64,000 bases of DNA from Akkermansia sp. (lineage in GTDB: Bacteria; Verrucomicrobiota; Verrucomicrobiia; Verrucomicrobiales; Akkermansiaceae): assembly GCA_045616565.1 (NCBI GenBank), contig JAZLHB010000144.1, positions 18,216 through 82,215 of the forward strand, in the 5' to 3' direction. The notes below the pieces were generated by a model. The model saw only the letters and a program-made list of their open reading frames with translations, searched no databases and was not told where the DNA came from. The first letter of the stretch is position 1; every line of letters begins with the position of its first letter. Made by a program: the position numbers and the translations under genes. This document shows positions 37,623-43,112 of the stretch, in pieces.

Positions 37623-40202
37623 TTAGAATGTGTAGCGCACGCTGGCGTTCACGCTCTGCTCCACGGAATGGCGGCGGGTTTCCAGCGTGTAGAAGGCACC
37701 CGCGCTCCAAGATTCGGAGAAGATCGCGTTCACGCCCGCGTTGAGCATGAAGGCGTTCCTGCCGGGGGCATAGCCCTTCACGCGGTAGTTGCCGTCTGCT
37801 CTGGTCACACCCGCGTGCGGCAGCTGCTGCGCCAGGGAGGGCACATAGGCCACGGAGAGCTGCGGCAGCAGCTTGGTGGAGCCTGCCTCCGTGCTGGTGG
37901 ACACCGTCACGCCCACGGGCATGCGCAGCTCGTTCAAGCGGCCATGGGAGTAGTGGCGTCCGTATGCGCCGTTGATGCTTTCCTGTGCGCCGTATGCCCA
38001 ATCCAGACCCAGGAAGGGCGTGATGGCGGTGGCCTCCGTCACATGGAAGTCGTACGCAGCCTGTACGCCCAGGTTGAACACGTTGTCGTTCCAGCGGGCA
38101 CGCTCGGTGGCTCCGTCCAGTCGGCAATCAGCGCGGTTGCGCACGCTGCCGTAGGCCAGGTGACCGCCGAGGGAAAAATCCTTGCCCATGCGGGTGGAGG
38201 CGGTGGCTGCGGCCAGAATGGCGCGCTGGTGCACCGTGGCGCCGTCCGCACCGCTGTTGTGGTATGAGCCAAAGCCCTGGCCGAAGCTGATGCCCGCCTG
38301 CGTGTTGGCGGAGAAGGCATGGCGCACGCCAATGCCGTAGCCGCCGCCGTTGGACTTGAAGCCCTTGTCGCCCGTGGCGTGCATGAAGGTGCCGAAGCCG
38401 CCGCCCCACACGGTGGTGTCGCCAGACTTCAGGGCGTATCCCTGCGCCCCGGAAAGGCGCACGAACTCGCGCACATACGCACTGCTCGCCCACAGGGAGT
38501 TCACCAGCGTCACGTCCAAAGCATCCGCCTCTGCGGCGGGTACGGGCGGGGGCGGGGGTACGGGACCCACACCTTGAATATCGGTCAGGAACAGCGTTTG
38601 CAAATCTTCGCTGAGCGTGAGCGTGGCGGTGGCTACGGTCTTGCCCGCTTCATCCGTGATGTCCACGGAATCCGTGGGTGTCACCAGCCCCGTGATGGTT
38701 TCATTCGTCATGTTCACCAACGTGATGCTCTTGCCCTTGAAGGCTGCCCAGTCCGTCACGGCATCGCCGTGGAAACCGAGCTCCACGCCTTCCAGGTCCA
38801 AGCCGGTGTTGGTGACAGTAATCATCGGTGCGCTTGCGCTTGCCAGGCCGTCACCGAGATGGAAGGTGAGTATCTGCATATAACCCATCTCCCCGGTACT
38901 TGTGCCGGTGCCGTGAATGTTGATTGAATTGCCGGTCAACTCACCGCCGCCTTCGCTGTATGCTGCGTAGACATACCCCAGTTTAATGCCTTCGGCACTG
39001 CCGGTATAGGTTTCGCCGTTAATGACAGCCGTCGCCCCCCTGCCAACAAGGTGAACGCTGTTGTTTCTGACTGCTCCCTCACCTTCGCCGTATCCACCCA
39101 TGGCCCAACCTTGCACTTCTCCACCTGTGATGATAGAAGTGTTGTTGCATGCATCTCCGTTGCCAGAATGGAGACCGGCATGAAGATTTTTCTCAACAAG
39201 CCCGCCGTTCAAAACAACAGTGTTGTTGTTTACTTCCCCGTATCCGTCTTTTGTATAACCGCCTTCAAGGTACTTGACCTGCCCACCGCGCATAACAACA
39301 ATATTGTTGGACGCATCTCCCGAGCCGGTGTAGCCGCCATATACACTGGAATCAACATAACCATCGTTTATGGTTACGGCATTCTCGGTCGCATCGCCGG
39401 TATCCTGTACATAGCCGCCTAATACATATCCATAAACCTCACCGCCGGACATGTCCACGGTGTTGCCGGTTGCGTTTCCAGTATTAGCCACATAGCCGCC
39501 GTATACATCATAATCAACCTCACCGCCAGACATGGTCACGGTGTTGCCGGTCGCATCGCCGGTATCCTGCACATAGCCGCCGTTTACATAGTGATTAACA
39601 TAACCGCCGTTCATGGTCACGGTGTTCCCGTGCGCCGCGTTAGCACCGTATCCTCCGCTTAGCTCATAGACCTCGCCCCCCGTCATGATAGCGGTGTTGC
39701 CGGAGGCCTCGCCGGAGACCGAATAGCCGCCTAATACATATCCATAAACCTCACCGCCGGACATGTCCACGGTGTTGCCGGTCGCATCGCCGGTATCATC
39801 CACATAGCCGCCGTATACATGTCCTCCAACCACACCTCCAGACATGGTCACGGTGTTACCGGTCGCATCGCCGGCATAAGACACATAGCCGCCGAAGAGA
39901 CTGCCGCTGAAATCATCGCTGCCAAGCACACCGCCGTTCATGGTCACGGTGTTGCCGGTCGCATCGCCGGTATCATCCACATAGCCGCCGTATACATCGA
40001 ATAGGCACTCGTAACCTTCAGGTGCGGCGACCTCAAAAACCTCGACTGAGCCGCCGGAGGCTTCCCCTGTATCGGTGTAGGATCCGTAGACAACCTCAGG
40101 CGGGTTGCAATGTGTGCCCGGTGTAGCGGTGTAATTGGTGTTGGCATACGCGCTGCCCATCAAGGCGGCTGTCAACATGGAGAGGAACATTGTTCGTTTC
40201 AT
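37623..40202 (-). CDS. autotransporter with GGYV-x-DTGDATGNTVTM repeat passenger (surface paralog A)
   Basis: Preferred start MKRTMFLSMLTAALMGSAYA (ATG 40202). At least 8 tandem ~20-aa repeats, a Pro-rich linker GPVPPPPPVP, and a C-terminal beta-barrel ending SVNASVRYTF. Confidence 0.85.
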   Translation of the reverse strand: MKRTMFLSMLTAALMGSAYANTNYTATPGTHCNPPEVVYGSYTDTGEASGGSVEVFEVAAPEGYECLFDVYGGYVDDTGDATGNTVTMNGGVLGSDDFSGSLFGGYVSYAGDATGNTVTMSGGVVGGHVYGGYVDDTGDATGNTVDMSGGEVYGYVLGGYSVSGEASGNTAIMTGGEVYELSGGYGANAAHGNTVTMNGGYVNHYVNGGYVQDTGDATGNTVTMSGGEVDYDVYGGYVANTGNATGNTVDMSGGEVYGYVLGGYVQDTGDATENAVTINDGYVDSSVYGGYTGSGDASNNIVVMRGGQVKYLEGGYTKDGYGEVNNNTVVLNGGLVEKNLHAGLHSGNGDACNNTSIITGGEVQGWAMGGYGEGEGAVRNNSVHLVGRGATAVINGETYTGSAEGIKLGYVYAAYSEGGGELTGNSINIHGTGTSTGEMGYMQILTFHLGDGLASASAPMITVTNTGLDLEGVELGFHGDAVTDWAAFKGKSITLVNMTNETITGLVTPTDSVDITDEAGKTVATATLTLSEDLQTLFLTDIQGVGPVPPPPPVPAAEADALDVTLVNSLWASSAYVREFVRLSGAQGYALKSGDTTVWGGGFGTFMHATGDKGFKSNGGGYGIGVRHAFSANTQAGISFGQGFGSYHNSGADGATVHQRAILAAATASTRMGKDFSLGGHLAYGSVRNRADCRLDGATERARWNDNVFNLGVQAAYDFHVTEATAITPFLGLDWAYGAQESINGAYGRHYSHGRLNELRMPVGVTVSTSTEAGSTKLLPQLSVAYVPSLAQQLPHAGVTRADGNYRVKGYAPGRNAFMLNAGVNAIFSESWSAGAFYTLETRRHSVEQSVNASVRYTF

Positions 40203-40261
40203 AGTCTGTAGCGATAAATGTTTGTTGAATGGCGATTCCTCCATGGAACCGACCTGTAGTT

Positions 40262-40449
40262 AAGCATACAGCATTGCCAATACTGTATGCTTGCCTATGG
40301 CCGTGAAGCCTTGTGTCAGCGGGGTTTGCGGCGGGTTGGAGTGGAGCGCGGACGAGGTGGCGGGGAGCGCTCTTGGGCAAAAAAACGCTGGAACGGCAAC
40401 TTTTTTGCAGGATAGAGCTTGACTACAGTATTGGCAAACCTGTACGCTT
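40262..40449. promoter_or_regulatory. candidate invertible promoter element A (26-bp imperfect inverted repeats flanking 136 bp)
   Basis: Left site 40262-40292 is a 10-11-10 palindrome, AAGCATACAG-CATTGCCAATA-CTGTATGCTT. Right site 40424-40449 is TACAGTATTGGCAAACCTGTACGCTT. The shared core TTGCCAATACTGTA is in inverted orientation. TTGACT lies at the inner right border. Confidence 0.5.
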
Positions 40450-40451
40450 TC

Positions 40452-41751: not shown

Positions 41752-41797
41752 GGTTTCAAAAAAATCACGCAGATTATACGTCTCTAGGTTAGAGAGG

Positions 41798-42038
41798 TCA
41801 AGCCCTCGCGCTCACCACCTCCACGCCGTGCTTGCGGTAGAACTCCGCCTCCCAAGCCCAGTCGTGCCTCGGCCACTTGTACGTGCCGACGTCTCCATCC
41901 GGGCAGAAGTCCACCAGCGTGATGCGCGCCGCCGGGAACTGTGCGCGCAGCAGACGGTAGGCAATCCACCCGGTCGTGGGGAGCATCCCGGTAGCCCTGC
42001 GGTACTCCGCCATCCAAGTGTGCTCGGAGGCCACCACG
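41798..42038 (-). pseudogene. second 5'-truncated copy of gene X
   Basis: Same truncation junction (GAGGCCACCACG|TTTACCCGCCCCCTCC) as the copy at 40698. Encodes ...ASEHTWMAEYRRATGMLPTTGWIAYRLL...FYRKHGVEVVSARA. Confidence 0.7.
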
Positions 42039-42116
42039 TTTACCCGCCCCCTCCAAGGAAACCGCCCCGCAAGGCATACGGCCAGGCGGGGCGAGAGTGT
42101 TTCTAGCCAAACAATT

Positions 42117-43112
42117 TTACTTCCTGCGGCGGCGGGCTGCAAGGCCAGCCAGCGCGAGGAGGGAAAGGGAACCTGTTGCGGGCTCCGGCACTCCCTGAAT
42201 GTTGGTCAGGAGCAGTTGAGTGTTGTCCTCGTTCAATTTCAGCGTTGCTGTGGCCGTCACTACATCCCCGCGCTTGATTTCCACCTCCTTGCCCTCGCCC
42301 CAGTCATCTCCGACTGTGACTCCGGCAACGGTCGTTGCCAGCGTGATTGTCTTGCCGGGTGTCCACTCCTGCACATCAAGGTCTTTGACTTGCAGCTCCA
42401 CGTTCGTGAGGTCCAGAAACTCCGTTCTCAACTTCGTCGAGGTAAGGGTGAGGGCTGGGTCCGCATACGTTCCAGACACCTGTCCATCCGTTATGTTGAA
42501 CGTGAGTATCTGCGTATTTGACATATTGAATGCCGTAATGCCAACTCCGTAGATGTCAATAGAATTGCCTACAGATGTTCCCCCCAGGCCGGGATAAGCA
42601 GCTTGCAGTGCCCCCCCGATTTTTATGCCGCCCTCTCCACCGGTGTATGTGCTACTGCCAATGCTCACATTGGTCGCTCCCTTACCCACCAGATACACCT
42701 TGTTGTTCATTGCTGTGCCAAGGTTGTTTGTGTGCCCACTGCATAAAGTGCTTTGTATGGTGCCCGCCGTGACAATGACCACGTTGTTGGAGGCTTCGTT
42801 TTGGTTGGTTTTCGCGAACCCTCCGCAGACCTGCCAAACCGTACCGCCAGACATGACTACCGTGTTGTTGCAGGCATCCGCCACTTCGGAGTAACCGCCG
42901 TATACGGTAGCGCTGTTTGGCACATCCCCTTGCTCGTCGGCTTTGATGGTGACATTTCCTCCCGTGGCGGAGCCGGCGTCGGAATACGTGCCGTAATATA
43001 TTGTGCCGTCTACCTTCCCACAATTATCAACGGCGGTTCCCGTGACTTCAGCAAACACCTGCCCACCCAGCAGGGCGGCTGTCAACATGGCGAGGAAGCA
43101 AGTCTTCTTCAT
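42117..43112 (-). CDS. PEP-CTERM-anchored surface protein, passenger-like (paralog C)
   Basis: Preferred start MKKTCFLAMLTAALLGGQVFA (ATG 43112). ...GNSIDIYGVG...TQILTFNITDG...ATATLKLNEDNTQLLLTNIQGVPEPATGSLSLLALAGLAARRRRK. Confidence 0.85.
   Translation of the reverse strand: MKKTCFLAMLTAALLGGQVFAEVTGTAVDNCGKVDGTIYYGTYSDAGSATGGNVTIKADEQGDVPNSATVYGGYSEVADACNNTVVMSGGTVWQVCGGFAKTNQNEASNNVVIVTAGTIQSTLCSGHTNNLGTAMNNKVYLVGKGATNVSIGSSTYTGGEGGIKIGGALQAAYPGLGGTSVGNSIDIYGVGITAFNMSNTQILTFNITDGQVSGTYADPALTLTSTKLRTEFLDLTNVELQVKDLDVQEWTPGKTITLATTVAGVTVGDDWGEGKEVEIKRGDVVTATATLKLNEDNTQLLLTNIQGVPEPATGSLSLLALAGLAARRRRK

Follow-up and report, generated by a model that had tools for sequence, protein, structure and literature searches.

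The 64-kb stretch of DNA studied here (the window, in whose positions all coordinates are given) comes from an uncultured gut Akkermansia sp. and carries three neighbouring genes, A, B and C, which lie on the minus strand as three open reading frames (ORFs) exactly where an initial annotation of the sequence had placed them. Each starts with a predicted signal peptide and continues with a collinear passenger module of ~240 amino acids (aa) common to all three; A then ends in an autotransporter barrel, and B and C end in a PEP-CTERM tail. A single kind of passenger is combined, at the same junction, with either of two C-terminal export or anchor modules, and this was observed throughout the family to which the genes belong. 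The parts of the three genes, with nucleotide (nt) positions where these apply, are the following.

37623-40202, minus strand: gene A, an ORF of 859 aa
Gene A, aa 1-20: predicted signal peptide MKRTMFLSMLTAALMGSAYA, followed by N, as read off the sequence
Gene A, aa ~66-286: eight or so repeat units of 27 aa (81-nt period), at the N-terminal side
Gene A, aa 287-545 (nt 38568-39344, minus strand): shared passenger module
Gene A, aa 546-859 (nt 37626-38567, minus strand): Pro-rich linker and autotransporter barrel
40777-41751, minus strand: gene B, 324 aa, with signal peptide, shared module and PEP-CTERM tail
Gene B, aa 302-324 (nt 40780-40848, minus strand): PEP-CTERM tail
42117-43112, minus strand: gene C, 331 aa, with signal peptide, shared module and PEP-CTERM tail
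Gene C, aa 309-331 (nt 42120-42188, minus strand): PEP-CTERM tail

The relatedness of the passengers was seen in pairwise BLASTP comparisons run with compositional adjustment. A and C align with an E value of 3e-34 (38% identity over 325 aa) and the alignment stops exactly at the residues IQGV, A and B align with an E value of 4e-23, and B and C align along their full length (4e-37). The passenger modules are mutually 37-47% identical, and the shared part includes a non-repetitive C-terminal stretch of ~130 aa (GNSIDIYGTG ... MQILxFHL ... ATATLxL ... IQGV). Because the alignment covers this stretch, the likeness of the three proteins is not a low-complexity artefact, and the possibility that it is confined to repeats, which the initial annotation had raised against itself, is answered in the negative by similarity that is non-repetitive, collinear and ends in a conserved junction. 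The signal peptides that had been described as shared were found in all three genes, and so were the passenger motifs, but C reads TQILTFNI and not MQILTFHL. In a Pfam scan A matched no passenger family, PATR (PF12951) included.

After IQGV, A continues with GPVPPPPPVP and then with the Autotransporter domain PF03797 (E 3.6e-28, residues 598-838, model positions 1-254/255), and the protein ends in VRYTF, that is, with the terminal aromatic residue of a barrel. The C-terminus of C, VPEPATGSLSLLALAGLAARRRRK, scores above the cut-offs of both curated PEP-CTERM models (PF07589, 20.9 vs 20.7; TIGR02595, 20.3 vs 16), and that of B, VPEPTTGTFSLLALAGLAARRRKK, is borderline, with a TIGR02595 score of 16.0 that is exactly the cut-off of 16. 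The assignment of a barrel to A and of PEP-CTERM ends to B and C therefore holds, for B at the edge of recognition. The same junction had also been claimed for all three proteins, and here A and C indeed switch after IQGV, but B reads LVVPRV followed directly by PEP. Among Akkermansia homologues the junction is kept in ~24 barrel-ended and >90 PEP-ended proteins. The former read ...IQGV-[G/T/A]PVP..GPDALDVxLVNSLW and the latter ...I[Q/K]G[V/A]-(xPV)PEPxTG, and PVP after IQGV can occur in both classes. In a 55-sequence alignment of PEP-ended proteins P-E-P is invariant. A third protein of PEP-CTERM type, the Mac-1-like protein at 36602-37501, lies within 7 kb of B and C.

The three genes belong to a larger family, the members of which are named Akkermansia sp. 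or Akkermansiaceae where they are named, and which among the matches listed come mostly from metagenome-assembled genomes of animal guts and faeces. With C as the query, 96 homologues came back, which with few exceptions are 330-400 aa long and have tails made of VPEP, a helix and RRRK; with A as the query, ~24 barrel-ended proteins were recovered, 669-1411 aa in length. The nearest relatives of A are barrel-ended and stand in other genomes (P0102 at 85% identity, others at 59-72%), and those of C are PEP-ended (up to 58%). Passengers like that of A also occur with the other ending: the PEP-ended protein P0061 (547 aa) is 45% identical to A over 63% of A, and P0121, P0122, P0125, P0126 and P0130 (686-1253 aa) are further PEP-ended proteins of this kind. 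Tandem arrays are common, and they can be mixed, as in locus L002, where a barrel gene is followed by a PEP gene of 955 aa, or consist of two or three PEP genes each (L005, L007 and L008). In four long barrel-ended homologues of A (P0098, P0101, P0105 and P0108) the module is internal and is followed by a second complete passenger unit, an architecture that looks like a fusion of adjacent paralogs.

A tree was built from 117 shared modules by neighbour joining and given a midpoint root; in it A groups with the ~24 barrel-ended homologues as one clade, and B and C each sit in a separate PEP subfamily. The barrel clade is nested among PEP clades, and a clade of long PEP-ended proteins is nested within the barrel clade. 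A profile built from 55 PEP-ended proteins and searched against 1.84 billion representatives gave 6521 matches at E <= 0.001 and 389 at E <= 1e-30. The best 150 of these matches held 117 new proteins, 59 of which end in F or W and 44 in a PEP tail; most of the 59 have barrel-like terminal motifs and many are 1-4 thousand aa long. Judged from its sequence, the passenger is an autotransporter-type beta-strand repeat.

Structure prediction is in line with an all-beta passenger. The AlphaFold model of C (pLDDT, the predicted local distance difference test score, 90.8) has an all-beta body and a C-terminal helix at residues 313-329, and in the model of A the passenger (residues 33-546) is all-beta with pLDDT mostly above 90. 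The top lists of Foldseek included pertactin, UpaB, IgA1 protease, Ag43, EspP, Hap and phage tailspikes, none of them significant; beta-helix proteins predominate in the list of A, and in that of C they are interspersed with unrelated folds. According to these models the fold of the passenger is likely a beta-helix. Comparison with the PDB by phmmer gave no sequence match to a solved structure.

Upstream of A and C, short inverted repeats flank segments that we predict to be promoter invertons, and B is preceded by what appears to be a fixed promoter:

40262-40449: inverton upstream of A, with arms 40262-40287 and 40424-40449 around 136 nt, OFF as assembled
43146-43324: inverton upstream of C, with arms 43146-43166 and 43304-43324 around 137 nt, OFF as assembled
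41773-41801, minus strand: sigma-70-like putative promoter of B, TTGACC-17-TATAAT

Both invertons are ~180 bp long and lie between a gene relic (described below) and the start codon of A or C. The arms are 26 nt long and 88% complementary at A, and 21 nt long and 90% complementary at C. Each arm is near-palindromic (TACAG-N11-CTGTA), and the arm core TACAGTATTGGCAA occurs at four places in the window, all of them arms, with an expected number of 0. The 23-nt distal arm was not found in a metagenome scan. After flipping in silico the A segment gives TTGACT-18-TATGCT and the C segment TTGACC-17-TATAAT, the latter with 11/12 consensus matches. The promoter would thus be split, with the invertible segment supplying the -35 box and the outer edge of the gene-proximal arm the -10 box. 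Opposite orientations were observed in other assemblies. The A segment is 75% identical to the orthologous segment of locus L001 when flipped and 48% as it is; the L001 segment is inverted relative to its gene and ON, and there the boxes read TTGACC-18-TACAAT. Similarly, the segments of L006 and L007 are 84% identical when one is flipped and 59% unflipped. A survey of the window, two syntenic or paralogous loci and ~1.1 Mb of Akkermansia loci brought up 17 such repeat pairs in all. In 9/9 of the invertons linked to the family, exactly one orientation yields TTGAC[CT]-17/18-TAnnnT across the proximal arm in silico; as assembled, 5/9 are ON and 4/9 OFF, both window copies being among the OFF ones. 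The putative promoter of B, with 11/12 matches, is the top promoter-like site in 37400-43800, and no inverted-repeat pair was found around it in 41700-42150. These patterns suggest that expression of A and C is phase-variable and that B is served by a constant promoter. At the locus of P0102 (L078:9780-10010) the ON-side inverton end and the proximal arm are present and the distal arm is missing, so the promoter there looks locked ON; the gene stands in another genomic context, after a GH35 beta-galactosidase gene. The 23-nt distal arm was not found in a metagenome scan.

We consider it probable (roughly 0.75) that the locus is a tandem array of an Akkermansia-wide family of secreted beta-strand-repeat surface proteins, in which one passenger design is combined with two anchors and expression is phase-variable. 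By analogy with classical autotransporters, the barrel of A, which together with a helix linker makes up the type Va module, would insert in the outer membrane and pass the passenger through it. The tail of B and C, consisting of Pro-Glu-Pro, a transmembrane (TM) helix and an Arg/Lys cluster, would, as in the PEP-CTERM/exosortase system, hold the Sec-exported protein in the inner membrane, after which an exosortase would cleave and transfer it. Flipping of an inverton would bring the -35 box to the -10 box and switch A or C ON. It is conceivable, if rather doubtful, that the anchoring mode itself thereby varies from cell to cell, the passenger being displayed either on an outer-membrane barrel or in an exosortase-processed form, perhaps linked to polysaccharide or released.

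Several observations weigh against this interpretation. Inversion is deduced from differing assemblies and not from reads of the same sample, the published inverted-repeat motif of Akkermansia is quoted in one paper as CGGATT..AATCCG, unlike the TACAG-N11-CTGTA arms found here, and no invertase was identified. A tyrosine recombinase gene at 52127-53041 (plus strand; PF00589, E 2.5e-47), which adjoins two tRNA genes at 53100-53261, may encode XerC/D or a candidate invertase. No exosortase was detected in the 64-kb window when its membrane proteins were searched with Pfam and NCBIfam models, and the tail of B, with a PF07589 score of 18.4 under the cut-off of 20.7, is overall at or below the curated cut-offs. 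AlphaFold left the barrel of A unfolded (pLDDT ~25), probably due to a shallow alignment, and Foldseek gave no significant match in the PDB for the models of A or C (best E 0.025 and 1.4). Finally, the tree was built by neighbour joining and midpoint-rooted, without support values.

The alternative that competes best with the surface-display interpretation, though we regard it as unlikely, is that the tails of B and C are inner-membrane anchors only, or non-functional, and that exosortase-mediated display does not take place. The missing exosortase in the window and the borderline tail of B would fit this, and to our knowledge no route is known in general that takes PEP-CTERM proteins out of the inner membrane and across the outer one. 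A crude motif and TM screen of 1.1 Mb of Akkermansia loci gave no exosortase candidate either, and the only polytopic candidate in the window, a 10-TM protein at 11666-13237, was rejected, as some of its Akkermansia homologues match Wzy_C (PF04932). The intracellular fractions of A. muciniphila contained PEP-CTERM proteins in greater abundance than the outer-membrane fractions did (PMC4960237). However, VPEP, the helix and RRRK are kept in >90 homologues with the invariant P-E-P, and the window contains the third PEP-CTERM protein (36602-37501) and exopolysaccharide (EPS) export genes. Moreover, A. muciniphila has an EpsH-like gene together with 23 predicted PEP-CTERM proteins, nine of which were detected by mass spectrometry, and its outer-membrane proteome includes nine autotransporter-barrel proteins (PMC4960237).

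A clearly less probable alternative concerns the history of the array, in that B and/or C could be recent products of a local exchange, in which a duplicate of A received a new 3' end in situ, or the exchange could have run in the opposite direction. The initial annotation had likewise proposed a module swap inside one tandem family, of which the shared passenger and the two anchors stand and the swap within the array does not. The genes are adjacent and co-oriented, they have the junction in common, and flanking blocks that are 90-100% identical point to recent duplication or conversion at the locus. On the other hand, the modules are 37-47% identical and belong to three subfamilies, A has its nearest relatives among barrel-ended proteins of other genomes and C among PEP-ended ones, and the near-identical block starts eight codons after PEP and not at the passenger/tail junction. 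As A, B and C fall in three subfamilies at this level of identity, the anchor switches are older than the locus, and the tree suggests that the anchor switched at least twice, both times before the array formed. In our preferred scenario of an old anchor exchange, Akkermansia would have re-routed an autotransporter-type passenger to an exosortase signal and then expanded the PEP-ended form. Concerning the direction, we infer that the PEP-ended form is most likely the derived one, a lineage-specific product that later expanded, because the passenger repeat occurs in many large barrel-ended proteins outside the family.

The blocks between the genes show how the array itself may have grown, since they contain three relics of another gene, found by tblastn with an intact 372-aa gene (L001:8638-9756) as the query, and hairpins downstream of A, B and C:

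40455-40697, minus strand: relic 1, residues 292-372 of the 372-aa gene, between B and A (86%, E 5e-44)
41801-42037, minus strand: relic 2, residues 292-370, between C and B (81%, E 1e-39)
43335-43709, minus strand: relic 3, residues 248-372, upstream of C (84%, E 4e-68), with an in-frame TAG
37566-37596: G+C-rich hairpin 3' of the stop codon of A, an inverted repeat (family D8)
40723-40753: related hairpin downstream of B
42063-42093: related hairpin downstream of C

The relics correspond to three copies of a ~300-nt repeat (family D1; 40461-40760, 41801-42100 and 43341-43640), whose identity is 83-92% over the full copies and 90-100% in the core, far above that of the coding sequences. The 247-kb scaffold L001 (ENA ERZ28564105) is syntenic with the window, with the same Mac-1-like, Mrp/ParA, TerC and aminotransferase neighbours, and it carries the intact 372-aa gene, of unknown function, directly upstream of its A homologue; the window copies match its last 81-125 codons. 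The repeats were considered as a regulatory RNA or a mobile element, which was rejected as they match the 3' end of this intact gene, and Rfam matches in the window were limited to four tRNAs, the ~300-nt repeats matching neither an RNA nor a protein family. Between the C/B and B/A junctions a block of ~395 nt is 95-100% identical; it is made up of the final ~16 PEP-gene codons, the hairpin and the relic. A start of this block right at the passenger/tail junction was likewise rejected, the block beginning inside the codons of the TM helix. From their sequence, which gave terminator-like hits, the hairpins are probable terminators. Because the relics and the 395-nt block are near-identical between the genes, a unit that took in the last 81 codons of the upstream 372-aa gene would have been copied, through duplication or unequal recombination, as the array grew. 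Two overlapping ORFs at 43772-44825 (plus strand; 187 and 168 aa) sit where the 5' two-thirds of that gene would be expected; their G+C content at third codon positions (GC3) is 0.68-0.73, and neither they nor the intergenic ORFs matched Pfam or PHROG.

Base composition adds a further difference between the modules. The passenger DNA had been described as more A/T-rich than the barrel part and the neighbouring genes, which both G+C (0.49-0.59 in passenger DNA vs 0.64-0.69 in the barrel part and flanking genes) and GC3 bear out:

Passenger of A: GC3 0.61-0.63
Barrel of A: GC3 0.84
Gene B: GC3 0.66
Gene C: GC3 0.65
Neighbouring genes: GC3 0.81-0.89

Since third codon positions show the same drop, the low G+C of the passenger is not merely an amino-acid effect, and within gene A codon usage breaks at the passenger/barrel junction. 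The relics have native values of 0.87-0.91 (0.87 in relic 1). Young, near-identical flanks around divergent cassettes of low GC3 thus suggest that the cassettes are replaced by recombination or evolve very fast. The mosaic origin put forward in the initial annotation agrees with the break in A, but a lateral origin is not established, as the break is compatible with cassette exchange and equally with phase-variable genes that evolve fast or are under relaxed codon selection.

Two remaining explanations have very little left to recommend them. The resemblance could be merely compositional, with convergent Gly/Asn/Thr-rich beta-strand repeats and no true module or junction, as the passenger is rich in repeats and the profile also matches thousands of unrelated large repeat proteins, but this is hardly credible with adjusted BLASTP E values of 1e-23 to 1e-37, an alignment that runs collinearly through the ~130-aa non-repetitive region to the same end, and a junction kept in ~120 proteins. 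It is just as improbable that B and C, which are shorter than A and lack the barrel, are decayed and truncated autotransporter genes with ends that resemble sorting signals by chance, as their reading frames are uninterrupted, they match curated PEP-CTERM models, a large family of the same length and tail is conserved, and AlphaFold gives a complete, confidently modelled fold ending in a helix.

The individual parts of this system have been described before. Like type Va autotransporters (pertactin, Ag43, UpaB), A has a predicted signal peptide, an all-beta repeat passenger, a linker, PF03797 and a terminal aromatic residue; unlike in them, most family members have no barrel, and A has no significant fold or sequence match in the PDB. 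PEP-CTERM, termed a modular domain by Haft et al. 2006 (PMC1569441), and its exosortase (Haft et al. 2012, cited in PMC4960237) are resembled in that there are several such proteins per genome and EPS genes stand nearby. The differences are that a tail-less partner, A, carries a complete autotransporter barrel at the same junction, that the cargo of B and C is an autotransporter-type passenger, and that the exosortase was not seen in the window. A. muciniphila has an inverton group ("group 138") that shows enrichment in the vicinity of PEP-CTERM genes, and one of its members adjoins two autotransporter genes and changes its orientation over mouse generations (PMC11892184); a phase-variable capsule inverton (cps1) is also known in this species (PMC13343947). 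The segments found here are like the A. muciniphila invertons (Jiang et al. 2019, as cited; PMC11892184; PMC13343947) in having short inverted repeats that flank ~140-160 bp upstream of surface-protein genes and in occurring in both orientations, here across assemblies. They differ in that the host is a different, uncultured Akkermansia of higher G+C and that the promoter appears split.

Phase variation and invertons near PEP-CTERM and autotransporter genes of Akkermansia are therefore already known. In the available portions of the published A. muciniphila inverton texts these genes are not described as one family, and among candidate papers, covered mostly by title and abstract, none gave the two classes one shared passenger. 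That both protein classes form a single family, in which alternative anchors follow the passenger at a fixed junction, is a point of which we found no earlier statement. In itself this is domain shuffling between two known systems, and the novelty is moderate. One family would explain, for the lineages examined here, why published invertons lie near genes of both names. It is commonly assumed that an autotransporter passenger cannot do without its own barrel. If B and C do reach the surface, a passenger can cross the outer membrane by a route other than its own barrel, and the pair of A and C would then be a natural swap experiment for finding that route. Direct tests are possible, as the genus is genetically tractable and gut-relevant and the family offers closely comparable passengers in which either anchor follows at the same residue.

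The window contains further genes for polysaccharide export and synthesis:

4340-6583: tyrosine autokinase/chain-length protein (Wzc-like; TIGR01007, E 2e-50)
6596-7213: Poly_export protein
16008-16796: WecG-type glycosyltransferase

The export genes at 3065-7213 include one for a 405-aa protein that ends in F, and the genes in 3065-7213 and at 11666-13237 have a GC3 of 0.61-0.71, below that of housekeeping genes. The Mac-1-like gene at 36602-37501 (plus strand, 299 aa, PEP-CTERM-like tail) is convergent with gene A. It shows a weak match to Mac-1/IdeS-type cysteine proteases (PF09028, E 1e-7, residues 23-64 only), from which the product could be an immunoglobulin-cleaving surface protease; its L001 equivalent is split into two ORFs. 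A second, unrelated autotransporter of 945 aa is encoded at 16951-19788 (plus strand; PF03797, E 2.5e-28). It has no inverton of the A/C type upstream, and its passenger shows a milder drop in GC3 (0.75 vs 0.875).

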